A program made the translations under genes and the position numbers. Below are positions 19,315-63,345 of a DNA stretch of 64,000 bases, piece by piece (position 1 is the stretch's first letter; every line of letters starts with the position of its first letter). The notes beneath the pieces are model-generated. The model was not told where the DNA came from. It searched no databases and saw only the letters and a program-made list of their open reading frames with translations. Source of the DNA: Terriglobia bacterium (GTDB lineage Bacteria; Acidobacteriota; Terriglobia; 20CM-2-55-15); NCBI GenBank assembly GCA_965198225.1, contig CBDAOY010000007.1, positions 990,045-1,054,044 on the forward strand. The letters are read 5' to 3'.

Positions 19315-20523
19315 ATGAGATCGCCGGATTCGATCGTCACCTCCACCACTGTTCGGTTGCGGCTGCAGCGTCTGCGGTTGGACCCCCGTGTCCAGGCCGC
19401 CATCGAGTTCTTTCGCCGGAACGTTGAGGAGATCGAAGAGGAGCAGGTCCGGATCACCAGGATTCCTGCACCACCGTTCGAGGAAGCCGAGCGGGCTGAC
19501 CACTTCCTCCGACGTCTGACCGATTCCGGCTTTGACGCCACGAGGGACGCCATCGGCAACGTGATTGCGATCTTTGAGGAGTCCGGGTCGGACCCCCTGG
19601 TCGTCGGTGCCCATCTGGACACGGTTTTTCCCCGCGACACCCCCCTGGAACTCGACCGCCGTCCGCCCGTGTTGAGGCTTCCCGGCATCACCGACAACGG
19701 GACGGGTCTGGTGGCGGGAATCTGGCTGTTCCGGGCTGCTCGTGAAGCGGGAATGGAGTTCGAACGGCCTTTGCTGCTCGTCGGTAACGTCGGCGAGGAA
19801 GGGGTCGGCAACCTGAGGGGGATCCGCCATCTGTTTGAGAATCCTCCCTGGTCGGGTGATAGCTGCGAGTTCGTCGCACTCGACGGTGCCGGCCTTCAAC
19901 GCATCACCGTCTGTGGTCTGGGGAGTCGAAGGTTTCGCGTCCGAATGACGGGGCCCGGAGGTCACAGTTGGGCGGACTTCCCCAGGCCGAACCCCATCGA
20001 CGCGCTGGCGGTCGCAATCCAGGATCTGAATCTGGCGCTCCGGGACCCGCCGCCCGGAACCACCCATAATGTCGGCGTCATACACGGTGGCATCTCCGTC
20101 AACGCGATACCGTCAGAGGCGTACATGGAAGTCGATCTCCGTGCAACTTCCGAGACGAACCTCGACGATATGGAGCGTTGCTTCCGCTCTGCTGCGACGC
20201 GCGCCGCCGAGCGGGTCGGCGTAACGTGTGACATCGAGGTGATCGGCAGGCGCCCTTCCGGCGAAACTTCACCGGGAGCGGGCCTGGTACAGACGGCGGT
20301 CGAAGCGACGCGGCTGTGCGGCGTCGAGCCCATCCTGGATATCGGCTCGACCGATGCCAATGTCCCGATGTCTCTGGGTATTCCGGCGTTATCCATCGGA
20401 GGTGGTGGGAGCGGCGGCAACATCCACAGCCTTGAGGAGTGGTTCGACCCGACGGGTCGGCACGTCGGGTTGGAACGCCTTCTGCTGCTGGTCGCTGTCC
20501 TGGCTGGCCTGAAGGCGGCATGA
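19315..20523 (+). CDS. M20-family metallopeptidase (ArgE/DapE/CPG2-like)
   Basis: It has the ...GAHLDTV..., ...DNGTG..., ...GEEG... metal-ligand motifs. The start is uncertain. Confidence 0.8.
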   Translation: MRSPDSIVTSTTVRLRLQRLRLDPRVQAAIEFFRRNVEEIEEEQVRITRIPAPPFEEAERADHFLRRLTDSGFDATRDAIGNVIAIFEESGSDPLVVGAHLDTVFPRDTPLELDRRPPVLRLPGITDNGTGLVAGIWLFRAAREAGMEFERPLLLVGNVGEEGVGNLRGIRHLFENPPWSGDSCEFVALDGAGLQRITVCGLGSRRFRVRMTGPGGHSWADFPRPNPIDALAVAIQDLNLALRDPPPGTTHNVGVIHGGISVNAIPSEAYMEVDLRATSETNLDDMERCFRSAATRAAERVGVTCDIEVIGRRPSGETSPGAGLVQTAVEATRLCGVEPILDIGSTDANVPMSLGIPALSIGGGGSGGNIHSLEEWFDPTGRHVGLERLLLLVAVLAGLKAA

Positions 20524-20713
20524 CCGACGTTTCGGAAAGACGAAGCGATTGTGCAACCTCCAGGGCGCGGAGATGCCCGTGACCTTCCCGCCCTGGATCG
20601 GAAAGCGCCCAATCTGAAATCTCAAATCTGCTATTTCGAACTTCCAATATTCCTGGACCGCTCCGTCCTGCCTCGCCATAATCTCAGTTCACCAACTACC
20701 CCAAGGAGACCGA

Positions 20714-45254: not shown

Positions 45255-45588
45255 TTATCCCGGGCGTCGACGCATCTCTTCCCGGGTGATGAATCCATCA
45301 TCGTCCGCGTCGAGGCGGTCGAAGGCCTCAGTCGGTCGGGTCCACTCGTCACGAGAAACCTTGCCGTCGCCGTCTTCATCCATCTGGAGCATCGCGGCTC
45401 CCCGGCCACGTCCGCCTCTGCCCGGGCGGGAGTTCTGCATCTCTTCGAGAGTGATGAAGCCGTCGCCATCGGCGTCCATGGTCTCGAACATCTGCGCGGG
45501 ACCCGGAAACTCCTGCTGCGACACGCGTCCATCGCCATCGCTGTCGAGCCCCTGGAAACGGGCTTGAGGGTCTGCGCCTCTTCCGCCT
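45255..45588 (-). repeat. downstream copy of an exact ~310-bp tandem duplication. It encodes a now out-of-phase extra EF-hand segment (...DADDDGFITREEMRRRPG*).
   Basis: Region 45301-45590 is 100% identical to 45611-45900. At the junction the upstream copy carries 2-bp and 7-bp deletions, which create a TAG stop at 45589-45591. Confidence 0.7.
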
Positions 45589-46746
45589 CTATCCCGGGCG
45601 TCGCCATCTCTTCCCGAATCCATCATCGTCCGCGTCGAGGCGGTCGAAGGCCTCAGTCGGTCGGGTCCACTCGTCACGAGAAACCTTGCCGTCGCCGTCT
45701 TCATCCATCTGGAGCATCGCGGCTCCCCGGCCACGTCCGCCTCTGCCCGGGCGGGAGTTCTGCATCTCTTCGAGAGTGATGAAGCCGTCGCCATCGGCGT
45801 CCATGGTCTCGAACATCTGCGCGGGACCCGGAAACTCCTGCTGCGACACGCGTCCATCGCCATCGCTGTCGAGCCCCTGGAAACGGGCTTGAGGGTCTGC
45901 GCCTCTTCCGCCTCTGCCGCGGCCGCCCCCGAATTGCCGCTGGATTTCGTCACGAGCGAGGAGACCATCATCGTTTCGATCGAGCCGGTCGAACGTCTCG
46001 CCGTCGCCCGTCCACTCTTCCCGTGAGATTGTACCGTCCTCGTTCGTGTCCATGACGCCCATACCGCCCGCAGTCCCGGGCCTCTGCCCCGGCCGAGGGC
46101 GCATACCACGCATGCCGCGGCCGCGACGCTGTCCCTGTTCCTGTCCGTAGGCGGTGATCTCCCCTCTGAGAGCGACCTCGAGCGCTGCCCTGGCTTCGGG
46201 GACATCGAACCCGGCCGGCCCGGGGCGTCCCTTGAAGGCGATGGTGCCGTCGGAGCCCACGACATAGATCCGGTCGGGAAACGCGGCGTACGCATTCGCC
46301 GTCCGGTCGTCGATCTTGTCCAGAATGGTCGGCATCGAGATGTCCAAGGCGGTCGTACAGATGTTGGCTGCTTCCTGGCGCTGCTCGTCGGTTTTGGCTT
46401 GTTCGATCAGGATGCCGTCGATAACATTCGCCGCTCCGAGGTTGCCGTCGGTGGGATGCGCTTCTCGAATGTAGACGAAGAAGAAATTGGCGCGGTCCTT
46501 GTAAGCCTGGTACCAGTTTTCGATGTCCACGACATCGCGGCGGAACGGGCCTCAGGTATAGCTGGCGAAGATCAGCGCGGTCGGTCTGCCCGTCATCTCA
46601 GAAAGCGTAATCTTTTGCTTTCCGTCTTTTGTACTGAGCGTGAAATCAGGCGCCGTATCTCCAGGCGTGGGGCCGCCGCCTCGCCGCTGGGCCGTGGCAG
46701 GGCTCACCAGGACGAGGACCAATAACGCAGACGCGAATGTTCTCAT
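45589..46746 (-). CDS. selenoprotein: iodothyronine-deiodinase-like thioredoxin-fold domain (Sec encoded by UGA at 46552-46554) fused to a C-terminal EF-hand repeat array; secreted
   Basis: It has a signal peptide (MRTFASALLVLVLVSPATAQ) with a GGAGGA RBS. APDFTL...RPTALIFASYT-[TGA]-GPFRRD...FFFVYIREAHPTDG matches the deiodinase motifs FGSxT-U-PPF and FLxVYIxEAHPSDGW. The hairpin GAUGUC-GUGG-GACAUC lies 15 nt after the UGA. There are at least six DxDxDG EF-hand loops. Confidence 0.7.
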
Positions 46747-47558: not shown

Positions 47559-47864
47559 ATGCCTCGAAACTACATGACATATCCGTCCGGTCTGGTCCTG
47601 CAGGCAATCGCTTCGGGGCATCGGTATGGTTTCGATGTGATGGATGTGACGGGATTGCCGAGTGGTACGGTTTACCCGGCACTTCGGAAGCTGGAACGAG
47701 AGGGCTATGTCCGTTCCAGGTGGGAAGGCGAAGATGTGGCCCGCCAGGCAGGGCGTCCACCGCGGCGTTACTACGAGGTTAGCGGCCCTGGCTCGGCGGC
47801 CTTGACCCAGCTGCTGAAACGGTTTCCAGGACTGGCCCGGGCCCTTGCCGCGGAGGTCTTGTGA
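47559..47864 (+). CDS. PadR-family transcriptional regulator
   Basis: It has the winged-helix motif GYDV...GTVYPALRKLEREGYV. Confidence 0.85.
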   Translation: MPRNYMTYPSGLVLQAIASGHRYGFDVMDVTGLPSGTVYPALRKLEREGYVRSRWEGEDVARQAGRPPRRYYEVSGPGSAALTQLLKRFPGLARALAAEVL

Positions 47865-48452
47865 GGTGGGCAGGCGGCGAGCGGTCTCTCCGCGTCTGCC
47901 TGTTGTGGATTCGCGCTCTGTCGTTCCTCGTCCCGCCCCCGGGCCGGGACGAATGGATGCGGGAGTGGCGTGGCGAGCTTCTGCATCACTGGAGTGAGTT
48001 CGAGACAGGAGTTCAAAAGTCCCGTGCTGCAAGATTCGATTTGTTCCTACATTCGATGGGCGCCTTGCCTGATGCACTGTGTCTGCTGCGTCAGGAGTGG
48101 AGACTGGACATGCTGATGCAGGATCTGACCTATGCGGTACGGACGCTCGGCGCTCGACCGGGCTTCACCTTCGTAGTGATTTTCATTCTGGCGCTGGGTA
48201 TCGGGGCCAACACCGTCGTGTTCAGCGTCGTCGATGCCGTCCTGTTTCGACCCCTACCGTTTCCCGAGCCGGAGAGGCTGGTTGCGATCTGGGACGAAAA
48301 CACCCAAAAGTCGATGCTTCGTCAGGGTCCGGCGCCCGGCAATCTGCTGGACTGGCGTGACCAGTCACGGGTGTTCGATGGTATCGGAGCCTGGTACGCG
48401 GGCGAGCCCAGGACTGTGCGCGACGAGTCCAGTGCGGAGAAAGTGTCCGCCA
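47861..48452 (+). pseudogene. ADOP-type (MacB-like/FtsX) permease, N-terminal ~195 aa only; interrupted by a mobile element
   Basis: DLTYAVRTLGARPGFTFVVIFILALGIGANTVVFSVVDAVLFRPLPFPEPERLVAIWDE is the classic ADOP N-terminus. At ~48450 the reading frame runs into AT-rich foreign DNA and stops (..SATIGFYYV*). Confidence 0.7.
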
Positions 48453-48613
48453 CTATAGGATTTTATTATGTCTAATAATATCCATAAGTCTTATTTATAT
48501 CAACAGTATATCGTCCTAGACAATCCAGCGCCGTCTGGTATAATCCAAGCCTGTTGGGGGATATATTGGGGGAGTGCTGGAGTGCCTCTGCCCCATCGGT
48601 CGAGGGCTCTGCA

Positions 48614-49792
48614 ATGGCCATTCACAAACTCTCCCAACGCAAGGTAGACACCGCCGGTCCCGGCAAATACGAAGACGGCGGCGGGCTCCGCTTGGTGGTG
48701 TCCAATTCAGGCGCCAGGAGATGGGTCCTGCGTTACACCGTCCACGGCAAACGCCGGGAAATGGGTCTGGGCCGTTATCCCGATGTCGGGTTGGCCGATG
48801 CCCGCACGCAAGCGCTACGGCACCGGAGGCAGTTGGCGACGGGCGTAGATCCCATCGCAGCCCGCCGGGCGGCCCCGGAGACGCTACCCACCTTCACCAT
48901 CTGCGCCGCCCGGTATATCCGGGCCCATCGACGGAGTTGGCACAATGCCAAGCACGCGCGGCAATGGGTCCGGAGCCTGAAGACCTATGCCCGGCCCGTC
49001 ATCGGGGCCAAACGGGTCGACGCCATTGAGACTGAAGACATTGTAAAGATACTCTCTTCGATCTGGAACACCAAGACCGAAACGGCCAAGCGCGTGCAGG
49101 GGCGCATCGAAAATGTCCTGGACTTCGCCGCCGCGCACCAATACTGCGGTCCCCTGAACCCGGCCCGCTGGCGGGGCCATCTGGACAAGTTGCTCCCGAA
49201 GCCCTCCCGGGTGAAGCAAGTCACCCACCACCCGGCCATGCCGTATCCCGAGGTGGCGGACTTCCTGCAGGAGCTGTCCGGACACCGGAGTGTATCGGCG
49301 CAGGCGCTGCGGTTTTTGATCCTGACCGCCACGCGCACCAGTGAAGTCTTAGAGGCGCAGTGGCCGGAAATCGATCGGACCGCCGGTATATGGATCCTTC
49401 CCGCCTCCCGGATGAAAGCCCGACGGGAACATCGAGTTCCCTTATCGGATGCGACCCTGGCGGTTCTGGAAGACCTACCCCGCATGGCAGGCCACCCGTA
49501 TGTCTTCGCCGGATCTCGCCACGGACGCCCTCTGTCGAACATGGCCCTACTGAAATTGATGCGAGACATGGGATATTGCGTTGAGGGTTCCCGGGCTCAC
49601 TACGTGCCGCATGGATTTCGCTCCAGTTTTCGGGATTGGTCCGGCGAGGTGTCGAGCTTCCCGCGAGAAGTTGCGGAAATGGCCTTGGCCCACGTGGTGG
49701 AGAACAAGGTGGAAGCGGCCTACCGGCGGGGGGATCTGTTCGCCAAACGGCGCAGCATGATGCAGGCCTGGGCCGACTACCTCAAGAAGTAG
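48614..49792 (+). CDS. tyrosine-type site-specific integrase, phage P4-like (DUF4102 arm-binding N-terminus)
   Basis: It has KLSQRKVDTAGPGKYEDGGGLRLVV and the catalytic R...HGFRSSF...Y motifs. Confidence 0.85.
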   Translation: MAIHKLSQRKVDTAGPGKYEDGGGLRLVVSNSGARRWVLRYTVHGKRREMGLGRYPDVGLADARTQALRHRRQLATGVDPIAARRAAPETLPTFTICAARYIRAHRRSWHNAKHARQWVRSLKTYARPVIGAKRVDAIETEDIVKILSSIWNTKTETAKRVQGRIENVLDFAAAHQYCGPLNPARWRGHLDKLLPKPSRVKQVTHHPAMPYPEVADFLQELSGHRSVSAQALRFLILTATRTSEVLEAQWPEIDRTAGIWILPASRMKARREHRVPLSDATLAVLEDLPRMAGHPYVFAGSRHGRPLSNMALLKLMRDMGYCVEGSRAHYVPHGFRSSFRDWSGEVSSFPREVAEMALAHVVENKVEAAYRRGDLFAKRRSMMQAWADYLKK

Positions 49793-52042: not shown

Positions 52043-52611
52043 GCCCCGAGATAACGCTTTCCTCGCCGTTGATCACACGGCGCGGCGGATTTTTTTCGAT
52101 CCGGCGCCTGCTGCCCATCAGCTCAGGGGGGGCGGGACGCAACGAGGTCTGTCTACCGAACGGGGGAGTTGTGGTGCCTTCTACGGCCCGAATGAGCGCG
52201 ACCAGATATCGCCAGCGAACCGGAGAAAGGGACATCGACTTGGCAGAACACCGTGAAATCGCGGCGTCACGCGTCACAGGGATAGACACGAAAGCGGTGG
52301 CGAAGGACTGAGGTGGCCGTATCGATACGGTCGTGGCGGCGCGCTCACCCGCAGCCGTGGCTGCGCCGATGATTTGTCCATGGGGCGATCCGCCGCGTGA
52401 CCGCAAGCCGCTGGCGATGAGTGCCTGCCCGGTTCACGGAAATCGGGCTATGGGCTCTGCCGTGCAGCGCCGCCCGCCTGTTCCGTGCCGAGCCCGTTGG
52501 CAGGACATGAGCAGTTTCGCCGCCGATACCGTCGATCAACGTGCGACCGTCATCACCGGTCCCCGGGTGTCGGTCCGCGGACGTCAATTCACAAGGGCGA
52601 CGCGCTACCGC

Positions 52612-53751
52612 ATGCGCGTGCTCTCTTTTTCGCTGCAAGGCCTTAAAACCGGGTTATTTCTGCTATTCGCATCACTGCTGGCCGTGTCGGCGCCGATTCA
52701 GGCCAGCGCGCAGGCGAACAGCCCTCCGGCGGTGACGGGGCCAACCAGCGTCGACTACGCCGAGAACAGCGAGGAGACGGTGGCCACGTATATCGCTACG
52801 GACCCGGAGGCCGAAGCAATCGCGTGGAGCGTGTCCGGGACGGACCATGCGCTGTTTTCCATCACTGCGGGTGTCCTGGAGTTCCTGAGCCCGCCGAACT
52901 ACGAGAGGCCTATCGACGAGGGCGAAGACAACGCGTATGAGGTGGGCGTCACGGCCACGGATTCCTCCGGGGCGGCCGCCACCGTTGCGGTCACCGTGAC
53001 GGTAACAGACGTCAACGACCCGAACATCGTCCTCATCATGGCGGACGATGTCGGTTATGAGGCCTTTGGGGCATACGGTAGCGCACAGTACAGAACGCCG
53101 CGAATTGATGAGCTTGCAGCCGCGGGAGTTCGCTTCACGAACGCTTACTCAAACCCGGTATGCACCCCGAGCAGAGTTGCCTTGATGACGGGTAAGAGCA
53201 GTGTCAGGAACTATGTGGATTTCGGAGTTCTACTCCCCGGAGAATACACGATTACTGATCTCTTTAGTGGGGCCGGATACGCAACGGCCATCGCCGGAAA
53301 GTGGCAGCTTCACGGTAGTGTCGTAGGTAGTGACGTAGTGGCTGGTGTCCCTGCCGGAACCGGATTCGACACGTATTCCTTGTGGAATACAGCCAACACG
53401 GGTCGTAGTCGCTACTGGAATCCTTCCATCGAACGCGACGGTGAAATCATCGATCTGGGCAGCGAGGATTACGGGCCCGACATATTCACGAATTTCCTGC
53501 TGGAATTCATAGAGTCCAACAGAGATAAACCGTTTTTCGCCTACTACCCGATGGTGCTTCCTCATGATCCGTTCGGCTCGCCGCCGCAAGCCCAATGCGT
53601 CGATACCGCTGACGGACAGTGCAATTTCGAGGACATGGTCGCGTATCTCGATTACAACGTCGGCCGCATACGCGACAAGCTGGCGGACCTGGAGCTACTC
53701 GACAACACAATCCTCATATTCACCTCCGACAACGGAACTCACGCACGCTGA
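52612..53751 (+). CDS. giant surface protein, segment 1: signal peptide + cadherin-like domain + sulfatase N-terminal half
   Basis: It has a signal peptide (LFLLFASLLAVSAPIQASA) and a cadherin repeat ending VTDVNDP. The sulfatase motifs are IVLIMADDVGYE and the formylglycine site CTPSRVALMTGK. The frame ends in TGA at 53749-53751, inside a cacgcacgc repeat. Confidence 0.75.
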   Translation: MRVLSFSLQGLKTGLFLLFASLLAVSAPIQASAQANSPPAVTGPTSVDYAENSEETVATYIATDPEAEAIAWSVSGTDHALFSITAGVLEFLSPPNYERPIDEGEDNAYEVGVTATDSSGAAATVAVTVTVTDVNDPNIVLIMADDVGYEAFGAYGSAQYRTPRIDELAAAGVRFTNAYSNPVCTPSRVALMTGKSSVRNYVDFGVLLPGEYTITDLFSGAGYATAIAGKWQLHGSVVGSDVVAGVPAGTGFDTYSLWNTANTGRSRYWNPSIERDGEIIDLGSEDYGPDIFTNFLLEFIESNRDKPFFAYYPMVLPHDPFGSPPQAQCVDTADGQCNFEDMVAYLDYNVGRIRDKLADLELLDNTILIFTSDNGTHAR

Positions 53752-56700
53752 TCTGATTTCAGAACTCGGGGGAGAAATGATCCATGGGGATAAGAACATG
53801 CCCAACAATGGCGGCACGCGGGTACCGCTGATAGTCAGCGTTCCAGGAGGTGAGGGGGGACGGGTGTTCGACGACCTGATCGACTTCACCGACTTTCTCC
53901 CGACTCTGGCTGATGCGGCAGGTCTTACGATTCCTGACGTCAATATGCTGGACGGCGTGAGTTTTTGGGACAGGCTTCAAGGCCGAACCGGCCAACCGCG
54001 GGAATGGATATATACCTATTACTTCCCACGTCCGTTCGCCGATAGGTTCGACAATCCGCAACGTCATCCAGAGGCGTCGTATGTCCGAGACAAGCGGTAC
54101 CAGCTCTACGGAACAGGAGAGTTCTTCGACATTTCCGTAGACCCTCACCAAGTGCATCCGTTGCCGAGTGACGATGAAGAGTCCAGCGCCGCCCGTACCA
54201 AGCTGCAAGCGGTTCTCGACTCGATGCCGGGGAGAGGTGAGGAGATTTACCCATATTTGATAGGAACTGTCCCGGACTCTGAGCCGCGCCCGCGATGGCG
54301 GCCCGTCCTGTCGAAAGCAACTGTGAACGGCGGCCAATTGACGCTCACTTACGCCGGAATTCTGGACTCAAGAGAAGCGCCTCCCGCAGATTCCTTCATT
54401 GTGAACGTTGATGGTTCCGAGCGTGCGGTCTCCACAGTTTCGATAAGCAAAACAGCGGTTACGCTTACACTCGCTTCGGCGGTTACAGTTGGCCAGACGG
54501 TGACGTTGAATTACACGCCGGGAACGAATGCGATTCAGCACGCGAACAGGCCATTCGGGCACAAAGCGGCACCCCTGGTTCGCCAAGGGGTGACGAACAA
54601 CACTGTGGACACGACGGCGCCGGCGGTGTTGTCGATCACGAGCGACGCGACGCACCCGACGAAGAACGCTTTCACGGTGACGATAACCTTTTCGGAGGAG
54701 GTGAGGGGACTCACGGCGGGGGAGATCGCGGTCACCAATGGCACGGGCTCGAACTTTGCGGGCACAGGCGCGAGCTACATGCTCGACATCGAACCCAGCG
54801 ACGATATCGAAGCCGACGTGACGGTCCGGGTTCCGGCCGATGCGGCGATGGACGCCGCGAACCTCGGCAACATCGAGGGGATCGAGACCTTCGCGGTGGA
54901 CACCCAGGCGCCGGCGGTGTTGTCGATCACGAGCGACGCGACACACCCGACGAAGGATGCTTTCAGGGTGACGATCACCTTTTCGGAGGCGGTGACGGAG
55001 CTCACGTCGCAGGATATCGCGGTCATGAACGGAGTGGGCTCGAACTTCGCGGGCACGGACGCGCGCTACACGCTCGACATCGAGCCCAGCGCCAATACCG
55101 AAGACGATGTGACGGTCCGGGTTCGGGCCAACGCGGCGGTGGACGGCGTGAACATCGGCAACGTCGAGGGGATCGAAACCTTTGCGGTGGACACCCAGGT
55201 GCCGAGGGTGTTGTCGATCACAAGCGACGCGGCGCACCCGACGAAGGATACTTTCACGGTAACGATCACCTTTTCGGAAGAGGTGACGGGGCTGACGGCG
55301 AGTGAGATCGTGGTCAGCAATGGCCGTGGCTCGAACTTCGCGGGCACGGGCGCACGCTACACGCTCGACATCGCTCCGAACGCCAACCTTGAAGCCGATG
55401 TGACGGTCCGGGTTCGAGCCAACGCGGCGGTGGACGGCGCGAACAACAGCCACGTCGACGAGGGCGAGACCTTCGCTGTGGACACGCGGGCACCGGTGTT
55501 GATGAGCGCTGCGGTGGATGGCGACACGCTGACGCTGAGCTATGGGGAGGCGCTGGGCAACCCGACACCGGAGCCGGGCGATTTCACGATGAATGTGGAG
55601 AGCGCTGGGCGGAGCGTTTCCAGGGTGGCGGTGAGCGGAAGAGCGGTGACTTTGACGCTTGCCTCGGCCGTGGCGCATGGCGAGACGGTGAGAGTGAGCT
55701 ACAGCCCGGGGACGAACCCGATCCAGGACGCGGTGGGCAACCAGGCTCTGGGACTGAGCAACGCGTCGGCCACCAACACTACGGATGCACCCAACACGGA
55801 TCCGATGATCACGAGTCCGGGGCCGTTCAATGTCACTGAGAATCAAGCGCGGGTGACCCGGCTGATGGCGGCCGACGCCGACCCGGGGGACGAGGTCACC
55901 GGCTATACGCTTGTCGGCGGAGCCGATCGGGCCCAGTTCACGGTCGGTGAGGATACCGGAGATCTGGGCTTCCGGGCGGTTCCGAACTTTGAAGCGCCCA
56001 CGGATGCCTTCAGTAACGATCCGCCAAGTGGGGCAGGAGACAACGAGTACATCGTGGTGGTCCAGGTCAGCAGCGGGGCAGGAACGCGGGTGCGGACGGC
56101 GGAACAGACGATTCGCGTGCGGGTGAGTGACGTGGAGGAGCTTCCAGCGGCGCCGGAGGAGCCGACTTTTCCGAGGGCGACGCCGGACAGCCTGACGGTG
56201 GCGTGGACGGAGCCGGACAACACCGGGCCGCCCATCACCGGCTATGACGTGCAATACCGGGAAGGCGTCAGCGGCGGCTTCACGGATGCGCCGCACTCCG
56301 GGACGGCCCAAACCACAACGCTCATGGGGTTGAGCGAGGGCACGGCCTACCAGGTGCAGGTGCGGGCGAGGAACGCGGAAGGAACAGGTGACTGGTCGGA
56401 GCCGGGCGAAGGACGGACCGTGGCCCCGCTGAGGGTTCGGATGACGCCGGAGCTGGAGCCGCCGGTGGAGGGCCCGTTCTCGGTGAGGTTCAGCTTTTCG
56501 GAGACGGTGACGGGTTTCAGCGGAAGCGACATCGAGACGGGTCAGGACCTTGCCTGCATGGACGATCAGAACAACCCGGTGTTCTGCAACCCCGGCTTTG
56601 CGGCATTCGAGACCACGGATAGCCGGGTCTTCACCACCCGCGTGACCCCGAGGACCGGCGGGGTGGCCAATAACTACAAGCTCACGCTCACGGTGCGTGC

Positions 56701-58837
56701 CGGCGGAGTGAGATCGTCTGTCGGCAATAAGCCTAACGAGGAGGCGACGCTTGAGGTGCCGGTGGCGCCGCCGGGGGTGACGGTGCCGATCGGGCCGCTG
56801 GGGCTGACGGCGAGCGGGGGAAACGGCCAGGTGGCGCTCCGGTGGAATGCCCCGGGGGACACCGGGGGCGCCGCGATGGTCCGCTACGAATACCGGGTGG
56901 CGGATGGCGTCGGCGGGGAGTTCGGCGCCTGGATGCGGGTGGATGCGGCGGCGAGGTCCGCGCCGGTCCCCGATCTGACGAACGGCCGGGAATACGTCTT
57001 CGAGCTGAGGGGGGTGAACGCCCTGGGCTACGGCGGGGTGGAGACCGTGCGAGCCACCCCGGTGCGCACCACCACCGGGGACGGAGGAGGCAGAGGAGGC
57101 GGCGGGGGTGGGGGCGCCCTCCGCGGGACAGTGCCGGGCGCGCCGACGAACCTGACGGCTGAGGGCGGGGACGGCCAGGTCGTACTGAGTTGGGACGCCC
57201 CGGAAAGCGACGGCGGGGCGGCGATCACCGATTACGAGTATTGGAACGGCGGGAGTCGGACCTGGACCTCCATCGGTTCCACGAACACCACCCATACGGT
57301 CACCGGCCTCGACAACGGAACGGAATACACCTTCCAGGTGCGGGCGGTCAACCGAAGGGGCCGGAGCCGGGCTTCCAACCGGGCTACGGCGACGCCGGAC
57401 GTGTTTATCCTGGACTTTGCGCATTTCGCCAATGGCGCGTCCATTACCTCCGATCTGGTGCTGGTGAACCCGGGAAGCATCCCGATCCGGCCCGTCGTTT
57501 ATTTCTACGACACCGGGGGCAATCCAATTAACGCCGAATCGGTGGTGGACGTCACCGGTGATCTGACGGTCGCCGAGGACGGTGCCTTGACGGTCCTGGC
57601 GGATATGGAGCCACTCAGAGAACTCACGATTGCGACCCACGGTCGGGGAGCGCTCGTGAGTGGATCGGTGAAGGTTGTCTCTTACGGTCCTGTCGGCGGG
57701 TTCCTGCGCTATAACGTCCCGGATGTCGGCGTGGCCGGTGTGGGAGCGAGCCCGCCCACACGGGATGTCCTTTTCCCGGCCCGCCGCGAGGCGGGAGGCA
57801 TCAATACGGCGGCGGCGATCCAGAACCTGGGAGAGGCACCGCTGGAGGTGAGCTGCCGATTGATGCGCGCGGGCGCGGTGCTGGAAGAGGCGGAGATCGC
57901 TCTTGCGCCCAACGGGCAGTCGAGTGTCTTTATCGACGAACAATTCCCCGCCACCGATACGTCCGACTTCGCGGGGTCGATGCACTGCGACGCCCCAGCG
58001 ACGTTCACCGGTGTGGCGGTCGAGATGGATGCTGTCCACCGCATCTTTACGGCACTGCCGGTGGTTTCCGCGGATCGGCTCAGCGGCGGCAGTGCGACGG
58101 TCCTGGACTTTGCGCATTTCGCCAATGGAGGTTCCATCACCTCCGATCTGGTGTTCGTGAATCTGAAGACCCGTCCGAGCGGGCCCGCGCCCACTCCCTT
58201 TCAGATGGCCATCCCTCCGAGCCGCCCTGCCATCCATTTCTACGACACGGAGGGCAATCCGATGGCGACCGAATCGGTGGTGGACATCACCGGCGATCTG
58301 GAAGTCACCGAAGACGGCGCCCTGACGGTCCGGACGGAGATGGAGCCCTTGGGCGTGCTCACGATTTCGACTCACAGCCGGGGCGATCTGGTGACCGGAT
58401 CGGTGAAGGTGGTCTCGGAGGGTCCCATCGGCGGGATGCTCCGCTTTGACCTCCCCGGCATCGGCGAGGCCGTGGTGGGGGCCAGCGAGCCCCTCAGCGA
58501 CTTCCTCTTCCCGGTGCGCCGCCAGGAGGGAGGCATCAACACGGGGGTCGCGATCCACAACCTGGAATCGAGTCCGGAGTTGGTGCGCTGCGAACTGCTG
58601 CGCGAGGGCGTGCTGCTCGATACCGTGAGCATCCCTCTTGAGGCCAACGGGCAGACCTCCGGGTTCATCGACGGGCGATTCCCCAGCGTCGATACGTCCG
58701 ACTTCGTGGGGTTGGTACGCTGCAATGCAGTCGGTGAGGGGCTCTTCAGTGCCGTCGCCCTGGAACTGGATGCCGCCAACCGCATCTTTACCACACTGCC
58801 AGTGATCCCGCTGCAAGAGACGATGTCTCAGGAATAG
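53738..58837 (+). CDS. giant surface protein, segment 2 (frameshift continuation of segment 1)
   Basis: It continues in the -1 frame as ...THADLISELGGEMIHGDKNMPNNGGTRVPLIVSVPG... (the sulfatase C-terminal half). This is followed by Ig-like repeats (TQAPAVLSITSDATHPTKDAFTVTITFSEEV...), three fibronectin type III domains, and two ~230-aa C-terminal repeats (LDFAHFANGxSITSDLV...). The intact gene product would be ~2070 aa. Confidence 0.7.
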   Translation, partial: LTHADLISELGGEMIHGDKNMPNNGGTRVPLIVSVPGGEGGRVFDDLIDFTDFLPTLADAAGLTIPDVNMLDGVSFWDRLQGRTGQPREWIYTYYFPRPFADRFDNPQRHPEASYVRDKRYQLYGTGEFFDISVDPHQVHPLPSDDEESSAARTKLQAVLDSMPGRGEEIYPYLIGTVPDSEPRPRWRPVLSKATVNGGQLTLTYAGILDSREAPPADSFIVNVDGSERAVSTVSISKTAVTLTLASAVTVGQTVTLNYTPGTNAIQHANRPFGHKAAPLVRQGVTNNTVDTTAPAVLSITSDATHPTKNAFTVTITFSEEVRGLTAGEIAVTNGTGSNFAGTGASYMLDIEPSDDIEADVTVRVPADAAMDAANLGNIEGIETFAVDTQAPAVLSITSDATHPTKDAFRVTITFSEAVTELTSQDIAVMNGVGSNFAGTDARYTLDIEPSANTEDDVTVRVRANAAVDGVNIGNVEGIETFAVDTQVPRVLSITSDAAHPTKDTFTVTITFSEEVTGLTASEIVVSNGRGSNFAGTGARYTLDIAPNANLEADVTVRVRANAAVDGANNSHVDEGETFAVDTRAPVLMSAAVDGDTLTLSYGEALGNPTPEPGDFTMNVESAGRSVSRVAVSGRAVTLTLASAVAHGETVRVSYSPGTNPIQDAVGNQALGLSNASATNTTDAPNTDPMITSPGPFNVTENQARVTRLMAADADPGDEVTGYTLVGGADRAQFTVGEDTGDLGFRAVPNFEAPTDAFSNDPPSGAGDNEYIVVVQVSSGAGTRVRTAEQTIRVRVSDVEELPAAPEEPTFPRATPDSLTVAWTEPDNTGPPITGYDVQYREGVSGGFTDAPHSGTAQTTTLMGLSEGTAYQVQVRARNAEGTGDWSEPGEGRTVAPLRVRMTPELEPPVEGPFSVRFSFSETVTGFSGSDIETGQDLACMDDQNNPVFCNPGFAAFETTDSRVFTTRVTPRTGGVANNYKLTLTVRAGGVRSSVGNKPNEEATLEVPVAPPGVTVPIGPLGLTASGGNGQVALRWNAPGDTGGAAMVRYEYRVADGVGGEFGAWMRVDAAARSAPVPDLTNGREYVFELRGVNALGYGGVETVRATPVRTTTGDGGGRGGGGGGGALRGTVPGAPTNLTAEGGDGQVVLSWDAPESDGGAAITDYEYWNGGSRTWTSIGSTNTTHTVTGLDNGTEYTFQVRAVNRRGRSRASNRATATPDVFILDFAHFANGASITSDLVLVNPGSIPIRPVVYFYDTGGNPINAESVVDVTGDLTVAEDGALTVLADMEPLRELTIATHGRGALVSGSVKVVSYGPVGGFLRYNVPDVGVAGVGASPPTRDVLFPARREAGGINTAAAIQNLGEAPLEVSCRLMRAGAVLEEAEIALAPNGQSSVFIDEQFPATDTSDFAGSMHCDAPATFTGVAVEMDAVHRIFTALPVVSADRLSGGSATVLDFAHFANGGSITSDLVFVNLKTRPSGPAPTPFQMAIPPSRPAIHFYDTEGNPMATESVVDITGDLEVTEDGALTVRTEMEPLGVLTISTHSRGDLVTGSVKVVSEGPIGGMLRFDLPGIGEAVVGASEPLSDFLFPVRRQEGGINTGVAIHNLESSPELVRCELLREGVLLDTVSIPLEANGQTSGFIDGRFPSVDTSDFVGLVRCNAVGEGLFSAVALELDAANRIFTTLPVIPLQETMSQE

Positions 58838-58873: not shown

Positions 58874-59803
58874 ATGAGCTTCGAACCGGGCGTCGACGCC
58901 CAACGCGGGAGAGCCCGAGTCAGGGGGGCACGGACCACGGCATGCCTGGACGGTTCACGGCGCGCCGGCGGTAGACATCCGATCCGTGGACACCGTGGGC
59001 CGGGGGCGCCCCCGGATGCATACCGGAGGCCGGCGGGGGTCCATCATGCCTGGGATGACTGTGATGTCGATGTTGCCGTGCTCGGTCGCGTGCCTCGTCG
59101 CAGCCGGCATCCGCGGTGTTGCGGAATGGCTCCACGCGTTGAGGCTCGACGACAGCTCGCGCTGGCTGGGCCCATCCTCCGAAAACCTCTGCTATCCGTA
59201 TCGCGAAAGGCGCTGGCCTCCGGCGAGCCGGAAGATCCCCCCGGCTGGGAACGGATCTATGAAGGCTCGTTCCTGGAAGCAGCGCTGGTCACACAGCTTT
59301 CCGGCGACTTTCCCGGCCCGGTGCTGGCCGTGGTTTCGGTGCCCTTTTACTCGGCAGACCGGCAGCGGATTTTAGTCCCGCGAGGGGCGCGAGTCGTGGG
59401 CACGGCTCAGGCCGTGGCGAATCAGGACCAATCGCGCCTTGCCGTCAGTTTCCACCGTTTGATCTATCCGGACGGGCGTTGGGTGTCGCTGGAATTCAAC
59501 GGCCTCAATCAGGTCGGCGAGGGAGCCTTGAAAGATCAGGTCAACCGCCATTACCTATCCACGTTCGCCGCAGTCGGCGCGGTCGGCATCCTGAGCGGGC
59601 TGACCTTGCGCGGCTCCAATCCCTATGGCGGCGGGCAGCAGAGCCTTCAGGCTGGGGCCGGACAAGGGCTCGGCCAGGCCGCGACGCGCATCCTGGATCG
59701 TTTCCTGAATCGTTTGCCCACCCTCACCATTCGGGCCGGGCATCGGCTTCGCGTTTGGTTCACTTCCGACGTGCTGGTTCCCCGGCCCCAACAAGGAGAT
59801 TGA
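58874..59803 (+). CDS. VirB10/TrbI-family protein, C-terminal core domain only (possibly truncated)
   Basis: The C-terminal ~190 aa is LAVVSVPFYSADRQRILVPRGARVVGTAQ...RLIYPDGRWVSLEFNGLNQVGEGALKDQVNRHY...PTLTIRAGHRLRVWFTSDVLV. The upstream ~100 codons are Arg-rich and not protein-like, so the true start is uncertain. Confidence 0.55.
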   Translation: MSFEPGVDAQRGRARVRGARTTACLDGSRRAGGRHPIRGHRGPGAPPDAYRRPAGVHHAWDDCDVDVAVLGRVPRRSRHPRCCGMAPRVEARRQLALAGPILRKPLLSVSRKALASGEPEDPPGWERIYEGSFLEAALVTQLSGDFPGPVLAVVSVPFYSADRQRILVPRGARVVGTAQAVANQDQSRLAVSFHRLIYPDGRWVSLEFNGLNQVGEGALKDQVNRHYLSTFAAVGAVGILSGLTLRGSNPYGGGQQSLQAGAGQGLGQAATRILDRFLNRLPTLTIRAGHRLRVWFTSDVLVPRPQQGD

Positions 59804-59804
59804 A

Positions 59805-60722
59805 ATGAAAATGTACCGAAAAGCCTTCACCGTTGTTGTCATGGTTCCGATCCTCATCATGCTCACCACCACGCCCGCGCATGCCCTCTTCGGCTCGATC
59901 CTTGCGGGCATCCAACGCGCCCAGATGATCGCCAATCAGGGGATCCAGATCTACAAGGACACAATGGCGAAGATCACCCTGGACGGCCAATTGACCCAGA
60001 TGACGGATCAGTTCAACCACCTGCAAGAACAGGCGCTCGGAAGTGTCGGGGCGCTCACCGATCCGTTTACGCAGTTGGCTTCGGTGCCGACGCAGTTCAT
60101 CGGCGTGGGTCTCGCGTGGAAGAACGATTTTACCGGCGTTGCCGCGGAGCTTGTCTCGTCGGTGGAACAGATGGGCGAAACCGGCACGAGCTTTACCGAG
60201 TCGTGGCGTGATCGGCTCACCGCCGCCGACACGGTGACTGAGAGCGACATCATTGGTCTGTACAACTCTCAGCGGCCCGAAATGGCCCAGAGAGCGGCAC
60301 GGGGCTACCTTGCGGCGCGAGAGGAAGGCGAGAAACGCCTGGTCCTCGATCACGCCACGAGCGATGCGGCGGCGAATCTCATGATTGCGGCGCGTGAGGC
60401 TGTGGCCTCCTACGAAGGACTGCGAAACAACACCAATACTTCCAACACCGCGCTCGCTCAATCGCAGGTGGCCGGGACCCTGACCCAGGGGAACCTCACC
60501 GCGGCCATGGCGCAGTTGATGGCGTTCGATACAGCAAAGGCGGCAGCGGAAGATTACGAACGCGAGATCGCCCGGCGCGACGCGCTGGCGGAATGGGTCG
60601 AGGCCCAGCGCCGCGCGCGCGTCACCTTCGACGCGCAACAGGCCGGGCTCGATGCCCGGCGCGATGCGATGCGGGAAGGGTTGCTCTTCCAGATTCATCC
60701 GTTCTATCGCGGCGGGAACTAA
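59805..60722 (+). CDS. TrbJ/VirB5-like secreted conjugal transfer protein
   Basis: It has a signal peptide, is helical and Q/A-rich, and sits in the position before the trbL-like gene. Confidence 0.5.
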   Translation: MKMYRKAFTVVVMVPILIMLTTTPAHALFGSILAGIQRAQMIANQGIQIYKDTMAKITLDGQLTQMTDQFNHLQEQALGSVGALTDPFTQLASVPTQFIGVGLAWKNDFTGVAAELVSSVEQMGETGTSFTESWRDRLTAADTVTESDIIGLYNSQRPEMAQRAARGYLAAREEGEKRLVLDHATSDAAANLMIAAREAVASYEGLRNNTNTSNTALAQSQVAGTLTQGNLTAAMAQLMAFDTAKAAAEDYEREIARRDALAEWVEAQRRARVTFDAQQAGLDARRDAMREGLLFQIHPFYRGGN

Positions 60723-60734
60723 CCCGGTACGCCG

Positions 60735-61736
60735 ATGCAAATCCAACTCGACCCGGCGATCCCGGCCCAGGTCCCCCCGGAGCAGCTTCGGGATTTCAAG
60801 TCGTTTCTCGATACCGTTCTCGAGGGAATCATCGGCCCGGCGGCCAACCCTCTGCTGGAGACCGGAAACCTGCTGTGGACAGGGTTAGCCGCAATCGTGG
60901 TGGTGTTGACCGGCGCGAAGATCGCGTACAGCGGGAACATTCAGCCGTGGGACATCGTCCGGCTCGTCATCGGTCTGTGGGTGCCGTGGGTCATGTTGCA
61001 GTTCTACTCGACGCCCATCCCGGGGCTGGTCTTCACGTTCCCGGGGGTCATCACGGCGGGCGGGAATTGGTTGCACAATTTCTTGCTTGCGGACACGGCC
61101 TGGTCCATGCATAGCGAACTCGGAAACCTCGTCACCAACCTCGCGGAGGATCTTCAGGTGCAAGCGAATCAGGGGAGTATTCTCGGCGTGCTCACCGGCG
61201 GCGCTCACGCCGTGCTGACGCTCGTTGCCGGAGCCGTCATCATGCTGTTCGTCGTGACCTGTCTCGTCGTTTTGTTCGCGGTTACCTACGCTCAGGTGAT
61301 CTGGGCCCAGATCGCCCTGGCGATCCTCACGCTCCTGGGTCCGATCTTCATTCCCTGGCTGGTGTTTGAGCCGATGAGCTTCATGTTCTGGGGATGGTTC
61401 CGGGCGATGCTGACGTATTCGCTCTACGCCGTGATCGCCGGGGCCGTCATGCGCGTGTTTTCCGGCGTGGGCCTCGCCTACGTCACGACCCTGGGCACCG
61501 CCCAACTCAACTGGCAGTCCATTGGCGATCTCGGTTTGTGGCTCCTGGCGGTCCTGCCCCTGTTCGTGGCCGGGATCCTGTCATCGCTCAAGTGCGGGGA
61601 GCTCGCCTCGATGCTCGTCACCGGTGCCGGTGCATCGGGAAGCGGGCTCATGGGCATGGCGGGGATGGCGGGAACGGTTGCCACCGGCGCCAGCGTGCGC
61701 GCGGCCGCGAAAGCGGGGGCGGGAGGTCTGAAATGA
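60735..61736 (+). CDS. TrbL/VirB6-like polytopic membrane protein with a Gly-rich C-terminus
   Basis: It has multiple TM helices and the C-terminal tail GAGASGSGLMGMAGMAG. Confidence 0.55.
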   Translation: MQIQLDPAIPAQVPPEQLRDFKSFLDTVLEGIIGPAANPLLETGNLLWTGLAAIVVVLTGAKIAYSGNIQPWDIVRLVIGLWVPWVMLQFYSTPIPGLVFTFPGVITAGGNWLHNFLLADTAWSMHSELGNLVTNLAEDLQVQANQGSILGVLTGGAHAVLTLVAGAVIMLFVVTCLVVLFAVTYAQVIWAQIALAILTLLGPIFIPWLVFEPMSFMFWGWFRAMLTYSLYAVIAGAVMRVFSGVGLAYVTTLGTAQLNWQSIGDLGLWLLAVLPLFVAGILSSLKCGELASMLVTGAGASGSGLMGMAGMAGTVATGASVRAAAKAGAGGLK

Positions 61737-62404
61737 GCAAGAAGGAAACCCAAGACGCCGGGGTCGAATACGCCGAAATCTGGGGCGAGGCCATCCACGC
61801 GAACCACCACCTGCGGGTGCTCTCTGTCGGGCTGGGGGCGTTGTGCCTGTTGCTCGTCATCGTCGTCATCCGCATCGTGTCGGTCGCTCCCCCGCGCCCC
61901 ATCGTCGTGCGGGTGGATGAAGTCGGCCGCGCCGAGGCCGTCGCCTATGAAGCGATGGAGGCCCAGGCGGACCCCCTCGACCCCACCACCAAATACTTTC
62001 TCAATCGCTTTATCTATGACTTCTACTCCCGGCGGCGGGCCACGGTCGAAGAGAACTGGTCCCGGAGTCTGCGCTTCCTAACGACGGAACTTGCCGGTGC
62101 CTCGTTCCGGGCCGAGAGCCAGAACATCGCCCTTCTCGCGGCGGGCGCGGCGCGGGATGAACTGCAAGTGGATCGCGTCGTTTTGCGGATTCAAGCCAAC
62201 CCCCGGGAGCCCCACAGCGCGACGGCCGATTTCGATCTGGTGCGGCTGGTGGCGCAGAACGAAGTGGGCCGGGAACGCTGGACCCTCTCGCTTCAATTTC
62301 TGTTCCTCGATGAGATCCCGCCGGACCTGATCGTCCACAACCCGATGGGGATCGTGATCACCTATCTGCAAGGAGATCGGGCGATAGTCAGCGGCGAACC
62401 ATGA
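61732..62404 (+). CDS. TrbF/VirB8-like protein (N-terminal TM helix + NTF2-like periplasmic domain)
   Basis: It has an ATGA overlap with trbL-like. The matching motifs are PIVVRVDEVGRAEAV, FIYDFYSRRR and NPMGIVITYLQ. Confidence 0.55.
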
Positions 62405-63345
62405 TGATCGAGCATTTGCGGGGGAGGGAGCAAAAACTGGAACCGCTCGGTTGGACAGGGCGCGATGCGGAATGGATCGCGCTGGTGTGTTTGCATAGTG
62501 GCGTTTTCACCCGCGCACAATTCTGTTTCTACTTTGATACCCGCCGCGACCGCGCCCATCGGTTTGTACAGGCATTGGTGAAGCGGAGGTCGGCGGTCGA
62601 AACCGATGCCCTCACCTTCAATGGAGGAGGGAAGACGTGCCGGATATCGAGCAAACCGATCTACCGGGCGCTGGGGGTCGAGAACATCCGCCACCGCCGA
62701 AAAGCCCAACCGCCGGTGGTGATGCGGCGGCTCCTATCGCTGGATTTCGTTCTGGAACATCCGGGCATGAACTGGCTTCCCGCCGAGATGGAAAAGGTCG
62801 AGTTTTTTGACGGGCTCGGCCTCTCGCGGCGGTTGATTCCCCGCCGGATTTATTACGGGGCCGTGGGGGCCCAGAAACGCTACTTTGCGCTCAAACTTCC
62901 CCTTGCCGTGGACGCTCGAACCGTCACCTTCGCCTACGTCGATCCGGGGCACAGTACCGCTTCGGAATTGCACTCCTGGGGAGCCGCGCATGGGCCGCTT
63001 TGGGATGCGCTGCGGAAGACGGGGCGGCAGGTCCGGGTGATCGCCATTGCCGCCGAAAACAAGACGGTCGAGCGGGCGGAGCGGGTGTTGCGCGCATGGG
63101 CGGCGGCGGTCCCAGGGGAGCCCAGCGAGGAGCTGACGGTGAAGCGGGAAATCAAGGCGATTGACGAAGCGATGACCCACAAAGACCGGGAATTTCTGGC
63201 CCGGTACGGGGGATTCGGTGGAGCCATGAAACGGTCCGCGGCGCTCCAAAGTCTGCCCGAAGCGAAGGTGACGGAAGGGGTCTCGATTGACGACTACGGG
63301 ACGTGGTTTGCGGAGCGTTTTGCCGGTCCCGAAGGAATACTGTAA
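62401..63345 (+). CDS. hypothetical protein (314 aa, basic), last gene of the T4SS-like cluster
   Basis: The ORF is in the track and no family is recognised. It has an ATGA overlap with the upstream gene. Confidence 0.4.
   Translation: MMIEHLRGREQKLEPLGWTGRDAEWIALVCLHSGVFTRAQFCFYFDTRRDRAHRFVQALVKRRSAVETDALTFNGGGKTCRISSKPIYRALGVENIRHRRKAQPPVVMRRLLSLDFVLEHPGMNWLPAEMEKVEFFDGLGLSRRLIPRRIYYGAVGAQKRYFALKLPLAVDARTVTFAYVDPGHSTASELHSWGAAHGPLWDALRKTGRQVRVIAIAAENKTVERAERVLRAWAAAVPGEPSEELTVKREIKAIDEAMTHKDREFLARYGGFGGAMKRSAALQSLPEAKVTEGVSIDDYGTWFAERFAGPEGIL

Follow-up and report, generated by a model that had tools for sequence, protein, structure and literature searches.

The window, by which we mean the whole 64,000-nucleotide stretch of DNA analysed here, contains at 52612-58837 (plus strand) one gene that is divided into two open reading frames (ORFs), with the break falling within CACGCACGC, as found by ORF analysis. 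The features of the gene and of its surroundings are as follows.

47861-48475: truncated ADOP permease fragment adjoining the integrase
48554-49792, plus strand: tyrosine integrase (Arm-DNA-bind_3, Phage_int_M, Phage_integrase), in the left part of the island
52612-53751, plus strand: ORF A, the upstream portion of the disrupted gene (signal peptide, weak cadherin/Big_9-like repeat, N-terminal two thirds of an S1 sulfatase)
52612-52713, plus strand: signal peptide (aa 1-34)
52714-53010, plus strand: weak cadherin/Big_9-like repeat (aa 35-133)
53161-53175, plus strand: CTPSR, an intact Cys-type formylglycine (C-x-P-x-R) motif (aa 184-188), aligning to CGPSR of 6prm
53740-53748, plus strand: the frameshift site, taken to be a tandem duplication of 4 bp (CACG occupying 53740-53743 and 53744-53747)
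53753-58837, plus strand: ORF B, read in the +1 frame (remainder of the sulfatase up to ~54250, stalk, C-terminal cassette)
54299-54526, plus strand: first SWM_repeat (aa 562-637; Pfam, TIGR02059)
54605-55496, plus strand: three tandem 97-aa Big_12 Ig-like repeats (Pfam; tandem-repeat period 291 bp)
55490-55735, plus strand: second SWM_repeat (~aa 959-1040; two Pfam stretches, boundaries set by sequence)
55826-56125, plus strand: cadherin repeat (aa 1071-1170; PF00028, 39.7 bits against a cut-off of 28.8)
56150-57055, plus strand: first fn3 (aa 1179-1265), Big_12-like domain (aa 1270-1385), second fn3 (~aa 1390-1480)
57083-57385, plus strand: Gly-rich linker (GGGRGGGGGGG, aa 1490-1500) and third fn3, the start of the conserved cassette
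57398-58093, plus strand: C-terminal domain, copy 1, beginning LDFAHFANG; without a Pfam or NCBIfam model
58094-58834, plus strand: C-terminal domain, copy 2; all-beta, with a putative ASRT/TM1070-like sandwich, ending ...RIFTTLPVIPLQETMSQE
58874-62404, plus strand: co-directional type IV secretion genes, starting 37 nt past the giant gene
58874-59803, plus strand: TrbI/VirB10-like
59805-60722, plus strand: unknown ORF
60735-61736, plus strand: TrbL/VirB6-like
ending at 62404, plus strand: VirB8-like

ORF A is open from 52333; at 52612 it has a plausible start codon (ATG) and a signal peptide, and it terminates in ...FTSDNGTHAR before a premature TGA at 53749-53751; its called product (P0003) has a 100% identical sequence in public data. 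One base forward, ORF B reads ...THADLISELGGEMIHGDK... and runs to a stop at 58835-58837, leaving the ~5.1 kb downstream of the break fully open. When one CACG unit is removed, a 2,073-aa ORF results that aligns without gaps to homologues in both protein and DNA. Specifically, the junction DNGTH-AD-LISELGGEMIHGDK of the repaired protein is collinear with DNGTH-HK-LVSDLGGEMIHGDK in P0002, and ACTCAC joined to GCTGATCTG in the window matches ACTCACCACGAACTG in assemblies L088 and L089, while the Pfam Sulfatase match of the repaired protein runs across the break. The first-pass annotation had proposed a single giant cadherin/sulfatase/Ig/FN3 protein whose frame breaks at one point, in a cacgcacgc repeat, and the repaired ORF with its Pfam domains bears this out. 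The domains follow the order signal peptide, weak cadherin-like repeat, S1 sulfatase, SWM repeat, three Big_12 repeats, SWM repeat, cadherin, fn3, Ig-like domain, fn3, Gly-rich linker, fn3, and two ~230-aa C-terminal domains. An antisense ORF of 1,482 aa (54368-58816, minus strand) was set aside as a by-product of high-GC3 plus-strand coding, since the plus frame has a GC3 of 0.78 and holds all the domain matches.

The sulfatase has a PF00884 match at aa 137-436 of 158.7 bits against a cut-off of 25, accompanied by a match to SGSH_C. Its best match among solved structures is the exo-4S-kappa-carrageenan S1 sulfatase 6prm (2e-41), with which the CTPSR motif, the DD pair, the DNG motif, the distal Lys, and the His of the PH motif all align. 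With the S1 carbohydrate sulfatases in general (6prm; the S1_16 kappa-carrageenan enzyme 9fo1; human arylsulfatase A, 1auk; E values from 2e-41 to 2e-38), the protein shares the Sulfatase and SGSH_C domains, CTPSR, and the metal-binding DD and DNG. It differs from them in that the enzyme is fused directly to a cadherin-like repeat on one side and to a stalk of ~1,500 aa on the other, in that the gene is frameshifted, and in that the His of the GKWH motif of ARSA-type sulfatases is Gln (GKWQL). Since this Gln also occurs in the stand-alone homologues and throughout the subfamily, the chemistry of even the intact enzyme is uncertain. The stand-alone relatives, ~445 aa long and 60-65% identical, form a large set that includes, for example, proteins of Bryobacterales metagenome-assembled genomes. 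The N-terminal repeat, first annotated as cadherin, is weakly supported, scoring only 19 bits with PF00028 (cut-off 28.8) and 22 bits with Big_9. A cognate maturase (FGE or anSME) was sought as well: none was found within the window (tblastn E = 0.53), where the rSAM-SPASM protein encoded at 42624-45077 is a methyltransferase fusion. An FGE-sulfatase gene is present in the near-identical sister genome L082 (18226-18960), some 7 kb away from the locus.

Behind the sulfatase, the Ig repeat array consists of 3.1 copies of a 291-bp unit with 84% matches; the three repeats of ~95 aa described earlier are thus present, and the term "near-identical" overstates their likeness somewhat. The Pfam scan of the repaired protein also returns the three fn3 domains that had been reported, the Gly-rich spacer is found where it was expected, and the two ~230-aa LDFAHFANG repeats are likewise recovered. 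The first-pass annotation had overlooked the two SWM repeats, a second cadherin repeat that scores better than the N-terminal one, and a fourth domain of Big_12-like type. SWM_repeat/TIGR02059, Big_12, cadherin, and fn3 arrays, a length above 2,000 aa, and internal tandem repeats are features shared with giant surface proteins (the SwmA-type "cyanobacterial long protein repeat" and cadherin/Ig/fn3 adhesins), and the product is a putative "surface protein". In contrast to these giant proteins, the protein in the window has an enzymatic head and a Sec signal peptide, and carries no known secretion or anchor signature in Pfam or NCBIfam.

Multimodular sulfatases have been described before: P36 of Formosa agariphila combines an S1_25 sulfatase with a GH78 domain (PMC8511951). 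Both proteins join a sulfatase catalytic domain to other modules in one polypeptide, but P36 couples two catalytic domains, whereas the protein studied here joins a single enzyme to repeats of adhesin type, which are not catalytic, and to an unannotated cassette. Given such precedents (PMC8511951), and with ~20 multidomain relatives among the top 120 clusters of the sulfatase search, the tethering that the first-pass annotation called unusual is so only in a relative sense. A literature search on cadherin- or fn3-tethered sulfatases in symbionts returned nothing specific. The stalk-tethered sulfatases are a small uncharacterised family of modest novelty, since multimodular sulfatases are known; their existence suggests that, in some uncultured bacteria, extracellular polymers lose their sulfate at the cell surface and not in the periplasm.

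The break could in principle be an artefact, with the real gene intact and the extra CACG an error of sequencing or assembly. The contig names (ctgN_2x_l) suggest long-read metagenome assemblies, some with a coverage of only 2-4x, and such assemblies contain private indels of 1-2 nt, mostly in homopolymers. The lesion, however, is the duplication of a 4-nt unit and not a homopolymer change, and it is found identically in two further assemblies, L081 (ERZ25072076) and L083 (ERZ25072670). Because these carry 98 and 49 substitutions, respectively, relative to the window over ~16 kb, we regard them as distinct assemblies or strains. All their remaining indels are private to single assemblies, and the window assembly is clean where others are broken: the integrase is split in L081 and an OppA-like gene in L085, and both are intact in the window. 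A pattern search of JGI metagenomes gave no match for either allele. With the lesion shared, not homopolymeric, and set among indels that are assembly-specific, the frameshift is very probably real, with the caveat that low-coverage assemblies (2x, 4x) could share a systematic artefact or stem from related samples of one project. An error, one of the causes first proposed, is therefore unlikely, and the substitution pattern described below, which looks unconstrained, also argues against it.

A second possibility is that the break is functional, through a programmed +1 frameshift, a +4 hop of tRNA-His from CAC to CAC, or slipped-strand loss of CACG (phase variation). In the repeat, CAC and GCN codons can pair again without mismatch 4 nt further on, loss of one unit restores the ORF exactly, and the downstream frame has stayed open. 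Nevertheless, homologues are unshifted at this site. A programmed +1 frameshift of the prfB type would take place at CGC-UGA, where the P-site CGC cannot re-pair in the +1 frame; moreover, there is no Shine-Dalgarno-like stimulator upstream of the site, and no Rfam recoding element was found. The programmed frameshift suggested in the first annotation thus fails its defining tests. As for phase variation, the tract comprises two full repeat units (2.25 CACG units in all) and shows no length polymorphism among the three assemblies. Together with substitutions that look neutral, these observations make recoding or a reversible switch quite improbable.

To compare constraint between neighbouring genes, we counted substitutions between the assemblies. 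The giant gene shows 1 synonymous to 8 non-synonymous changes and the adjacent trbI 22 to 3 (Fisher p = 7e-5), a contrast to be read with the caveat that the giant-gene substitutions are few (9) and that part of them could be low-coverage errors, which also look unconstrained. Further lesions are seen at sister and related loci. In L082 (18x, 2.78-Mb contig), homology to the window ends at 53622, with an IS256-type transposase gene ~600 bp further on, and a T5-to-T7 change is present at 53532; both the break and the T-tract change might be assembly problems, since that assembly has a split OppA-like gene too. The insertion sequence of L082 was compared with the one at the end of L081, and the two are different. 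A 69%-identical relative in L089 (29x) is split by an inserted 474-aa ORF, and L041 has a copy with 74% identity that is only a fragment and is frameshifted.

These data also bear on whether the split might be tolerated, either as two functional products or with the stalk still serving as a mating or aggregation adhesin of a type IV secretion element. The gene ends 37 nt before the co-directional trbI, and ATG codons occur past the break at 53779 and 53798, the latter being the start used by gene callers. However, the break lies inside the catalytic fold and leaves ORF A without the C-terminal sulfatase subdomain, while the product of ORF B, having no signal peptide, could not reach the surface. 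In addition, seven of the eight ORF B substitutions are non-synonymous, and L082 has entirely lost both ORF B and the genes for type IV secretion. We therefore consider a tolerated split very unlikely.

Recent pseudogenisation, the remaining explanation offered at first, is supported by the lesion in independent assemblies, the unconstrained-looking substitutions, and the additional lesions at other loci; that the rest of the frame is open indicates that the event is recent. Most likely, then, a 4-base duplication has left a recently dead gene on a mobile island. Our full reading, which we hold with reasonable confidence, is that of one gene for a ~2,070-aa secreted modular protein (sulfatase, stalk, and cassette), broken by a real and recent CACG duplication and carried as island cargo or accessory. 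The intact protein would bear a Cys-type formylglycine S1 sulfatase at its N-terminal tip, followed by ~1,000 aa of SWM, Ig-like, cadherin, and fn3 repeats. It would be exported via Sec and held at the cell envelope through its C-terminal cassette, a route that would present the enzyme, which resembles carbohydrate sulfatases, to extracellular sulfated glycans as the putative substrate. The change from CACG to CACGCACG shifts the frame past residue 376, midway through the catalytic domain, with translation ending at the TGA at 53749. The outcome would be a truncated, presumably non-functional enzyme and 1,700 downstream codons without a signal peptide, and the lesion is fixed in the sampled population.

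The gene sits between the tyrosine integrase and the co-directional TrbI/TrbL/VirB8 genes, consistent with a role as cargo or accessory of an island that seems to be eroding in the sister strain. No relaxase, VirB4, or VirD4 gene was seen up to the window end at 64000, and the GC content is not deviant. As to taxonomy, the one hint is the ADOP permease fragment, which points to Acidobacteriota; a prolyl-oligopeptidase search yielded named matches at ~59% identity only, spread over several phyla. The broken gene is of little importance in itself: it adds another case of island cargo in decay. With the 5.1-kb downstream frame fully open, reversal of the lesion or low-level bypass is conceivable in principle.

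The cassette, composed of the Gly linker, an fn3 domain, and two copies of an unannotated domain, is more interesting than the broken gene; that its two C-terminal repeats belong to a widespread C-terminal module had not been recognised earlier. The two copies are 58% identical to each other, and no Pfam or NCBIfam family matches the C-terminal 479 aa, sorting signals such as the T9SS CTD, PEP-CTERM, LPXTG, and SLH included. Matches to the domain come from 1,429 protein clusters; among the top 150 the proteins are nearly all large (most 700-4,667 aa), with two stretches that usually lie at or near the C-terminus. Among the passengers that were scanned are trypsin, CARDB, GSDH with Spondin_N, Calx-beta, cadherin, fn3, and SWM repeats. 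The domain pair is highly conserved yet unannotated, is matched by more than 1,400 clusters, and in the top matches forms the end of large proteins whose passengers vary.

Like SLH domains and the T9SS C-terminal domain, the cassette keeps to the C-terminal position in a range of unrelated passengers that have N-terminal signal peptides, a likeness that is a functional analogy only. No machinery that would sort such proteins was recognised. In homologue P0008, an SLH domain occupies the equivalent C-terminal position. By position, conservation, and this SLH analogue, the cassette may serve in surface anchoring, and it probably represents a module for display or anchoring that has not been described before. 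The host is diderm, as TolC and an RND adaptor are present. More tentatively, and with some doubt on our part, the cassette may be a module by which an uncultured diderm lineage, probably associated with a host, displays or sorts proteins at its surface. Such a module might attach both enzymes (sulfatase, trypsin-like protease, sorbosone dehydrogenase) and adhesion domains of eukaryote-like type to the envelope via an ASRT-like glycan-binding fold, with the sulfatase protein as one broken client. Should the cassette prove to be an anchoring or sorting signal, the surface proteome of cassette-bearing lineages would become predictable. The Gly linker and fn3 precede the C-terminal domains in P0253 and P0300 as well; P0300 also has an LRR-like stretch, as judged by eye.

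The coding sequence within 52333-58837 is split between two long plus-strand ORFs, which lie in different frames and overlap:

52612 (plausible ATG start) to 53749-53751 (TGA), + strand: ORF A, the 5' part, with a typical signal peptide (MRVLSFSLQGLKTGLFLLFASLLAVSAPIQASAQ) and the end ...IFTSDNGTHAR-TGA
Stop at 58837, + strand, one base forward of the ORF A frame: ORF B, the remainder, reading ...THADLISELGGEMIHGDKNMPNNGGTRVPLIV...

Across CACGCACGC (53740-53748), T-H-A is encoded in both frames, and removal of one CACG unit yields a single ORF of 2,073 codons. Around the junction, no gap is needed to align the repaired protein with its relatives (DNGTH-AD-LISELGGEMIHGDK in the window, DNGTH-HK-LVSDLGGEMIHGDK in the homologous protein P0002, and DNGTH-HQ-LASDFQGSKILGDK in P0015), and the repaired DNA is likewise collinear with L088 and L089, two homologous loci. 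Because of this agreement with the relatives at both levels, a 4-bp tandem duplication is the simplest event behind the lesion. With a 1-nt insertion, by contrast, the protein would exceed all its relatives by one residue.

Using Pfam, we assigned the following domains on the repaired protein:

aa 137-436: Sulfatase (158.7 bits), the match crossing the break uninterrupted
aa 386-532: SGSH_C
aa 1071-1170: Cadherin
Two copies: SWM_repeat
Three copies: Big_12
Three copies: fn3

The Big_12 copies form a tandem repeat (291 bp x 3.1 at 54605-55496, 84% matches), and a marginal fourth Big_12-like domain lies at aa 1270-1385. Together, the ORFs, the repair, and the Pfam assignments confirm the giant sulfatase/Ig/FN3 protein with one frame break described in the first-pass annotation, the domain list of which overlooked both SWM repeats, the stronger of the cadherin repeats, and the additional Ig-like domain. 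Its N-terminal cadherin repeat holds only in part: the match is sub-threshold (PF00028, 19 bits; Big_9, 22 bits), but the repeat closes with a cadherin-like DVNDPN motif, which is directly joined to the first sulfatase strand (PNIVLIMADD). The stalk is built from the same repeat types as known giant SWM/cadherin/Ig/fn3 surface proteins. Multimodular sulfatases are also known, such as P36 of Formosa agariphila, which combines S1_25 with GH78 (PMC8511951). About 20 of the 120 best clusters of the sulfatase search also mount a sulfatase head on a stalk of adhesin type, and our literature searches returned no description of this arrangement.

To judge the reality of the frameshift, other public assemblies were used as a stand-in for reads at the site. 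Three more proteins that cluster with the ORF A product come from other assemblies, on contigs L081 (ERZ25072076), L082 (ERZ25069191), and L083 (ERZ25072670). Over about 16 kb, the window is separated from L081 by 98 substitutions and from L083 by 49, so these are distinct assemblies or strains; both carry the exact CACGCACGC followed by TGA. Every other indel is private to one assembly and mostly lies in a homopolymer (e.g., C4 to C5 at 53234 in L083), and two genes disrupted in low-coverage assemblies, the L081 integrase and an L085 OppA-like gene, have intact counterparts in the window. A non-homopolymer 4-nt unit common to three assemblies does not resemble random long-read error. We consider the lesion very probably real, with the assemblies seemingly coming from one project and two of them having only 2-4x coverage.

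The first-pass annotation had left open a programmed frameshift at the break, which is contradicted by homologues that are unshifted at this site, by a CGC-UGA that allows no +1 re-pairing, by the lack of a Shine-Dalgarno-like stimulator upstream of the break, and by an Rfam search that returned no element. Phase variation through the CACG repeat is likewise disfavored, as the repeat has just two units and shows no variation across three assemblies. Chemically, a rare +4 hop (CAC to CAC) or a reversion that drops one CACG unit is possible, but neither is supported.

The remaining option, recent pseudogenization, agrees with several findings. Among assemblies, the giant gene shows 1 synonymous and 8 non-synonymous substitutions, against 22 and 3 in the adjacent trbI (Fisher p = 7e-5), with changes such as L to P, and W to L in the conserved SFWDRL stretch; this pattern fits relaxed constraint, with the counts being small and some differences possibly being low-coverage errors. 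The L082 contig (18x, 2.78 Mb) matches the window up to 53622, within the sulfatase. Beyond this point come unrelated DNA, an IS256-type transposase, and more IS genes, and over the following 10 kb neither the remainder of the giant gene nor the type IV secretion genes are present. The sulfatase stub left in L082 also carries a T5-to-T7 change. A relative with 69% identity is uninterrupted in one assembly (P0124, 1,718 aa), but in the 29x contig L089 an ORF of 474 aa has been inserted into it, and the 74%-identical copy in a Thermodesulfobacteriota MAG (L041) is a frameshifted fragment. Additional inactivating mutations, which the first-pass annotation had named as the mark of a dead gene, are thus found in the sister copies. 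The frameshift event itself is recent, because the downstream 5.1 kb remains open. Altogether, we conclude that the window copy of the giant gene is most likely a recent pseudogene.

Among solved structures, the sulfatase domain comes closest to carbohydrate sulfatases and arylsulfatase A, with the exo-4S-kappa-carrageenan S1 sulfatase 6prm as top match (2e-41). The alignment with 6prm retains the CTPSR formylglycine motif, the DD pair, DNG, the downstream Lys, and the PH histidine, and the GKWH histidine of ARSA-type sulfatases is replaced by Gln (GKWQLH, aa ~253-258, about window 53370). Since Gln is found throughout the subfamily, also in the many stand-alone homologues of ~445 aa (60-65% identity, some named Bryobacterales), this residue is a subfamily trait rather than a sign of decay. 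By its domain score and formylglycine motif, the catalytic domain is an S1 sulfatase, with one canonical residue differing and the frame broken. As for a cognate FGE or anSME, neither was found in the 64-kb window, where the radical-SAM/SPASM protein (42624-45077), a PqqD-like methyltransferase fusion, is not an obvious anSME; an FGE-sulfatase gene does lie ~7 kb from the locus in the near-identical sister genome (L082).

The main point of interest is the unannotated C-terminal cassette, more than the broken sulfatase gene. The Gly-rich spacer of the first-pass annotation is present, as are its two ~230-aa LDFAHFANG repeats, which share 58% identity. With the fn3 between them, spacer and repeats make up the cassette at window 57083-58834 (matching proteins P0246-P0393), and the last 479 aa of the protein have no match in Pfam or NCBIfam. 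A word-indexed search with one copy of the C-terminal domain retrieved 1,085 proteins, and an exhaustive HMMER search retrieved 1,429 clusters at 50% identity (347 below 1e-30). Nearly all of the best 150 of the 1,429 are large proteins, most of 700-4,667 aa, with two matching stretches that are usually C-terminal or nearly so (~45-76% identity). The short "stand-alone" matches of the word-indexed search begin mid-domain and look like truncated gene calls. Pfam identified these passengers on 13 cassette proteins:

Trypsin-like protease (P0258, for which its own signal peptide can be read in the sequence)
CARDB arrays
Glucose/sorbosone dehydrogenase with Spondin_N
Arylsulfotransferase-like propeller
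Calx-beta, cadherin, fn3, and SWM repeats

By eye, P0300 also has an LRR-like stretch, and in both P0253 and P0300 a Gly-rich linker and fn3 precede the two C-terminal domains, as in the giant protein. The fold of the C-terminal domain appears to be ASRT/TM1070-like. P0008, a homologue of the giant protein, has an SLH domain at the corresponding C-terminal place. Based on position, conservation, passenger diversity, and this SLH analogue, we infer that the cassette would keep secreted proteins attached to the envelope, probably via glycan binding.

A TolC-family outer-membrane protein and an RND adaptor mark the host as diderm. A tyrosine integrase gene, with a permease fragment next to it, precedes the giant gene by ~2.8 kb:

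48554-49792: tyrosine integrase
47861-48475, + strand: N-terminal fragment (204 aa) of an ADOP-family (acidobacterial duplicated orphan permease) permease, adjoining the integrase and matching only the first 111 of 803 ADOP model positions

This fragment is possibly the insertion point of the island; in sister loci, a PadR gene precedes it. Along with the Bryobacterales-like stand-alone sulfatases, it gives a hint of an acidobacterial host (Acidobacteriota). GC content is not deviant. The giant gene ends 37 nt upstream of co-directional TrbI/VirB10-, TrbL/VirB6-, and VirB8-like genes, and no relaxase or ATPase was seen up to the window end. Between assemblies, these type IV secretion genes vary far more than the giant gene does: relative to L081 and L083, they contain dense, largely synonymous substitution tracts (59374-60665 and 62427-63240), which look like recombination with a diverged allele, beside a nearly invariant giant gene.

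In L082 (18x), where the entire right part of the island is missing, positions 11119-21152 hold the sulfatase stub, IS256-type and IS4-type transposases, and then genes for rhodanese/beta-lactamase-fold, FGE-sulfatase family, DUF1501, and PSCyt2/PSD1 proteins. L089 carries two equal-length 474-aa ORFs on opposite strands with no Pfam match (7898-9322, +, and 12929-14353, -), one upstream of the homologous sulfatase-adhesin gene and the other inserted into it, a possible unclassified insertion element.

Opposite the giant gene, an antisense ORF of 1,482 aa (54368-58816, -) was rejected as a gene and taken as an artifact of plus-strand high-GC3 coding sequence. A second giant ORF (3403-8004, -; 1,533 aa) encodes DUF7948 and SBBP beta-propeller repeats, lacks the C-terminal cassette, and adjoins tRNA-Ser(CGA) at 3161-3248. 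The 817-aa fusion protein at 42624-45077 (-), which resembles a RiPP-type maturase, joins a PqqD-like N-terminus to radical SAM/SPASM and a class I methyltransferase; beside it, an EF-hand protein is encoded at 45255-46295 (-), for which a T4_deiodinase domain is annotated in a sister contig.
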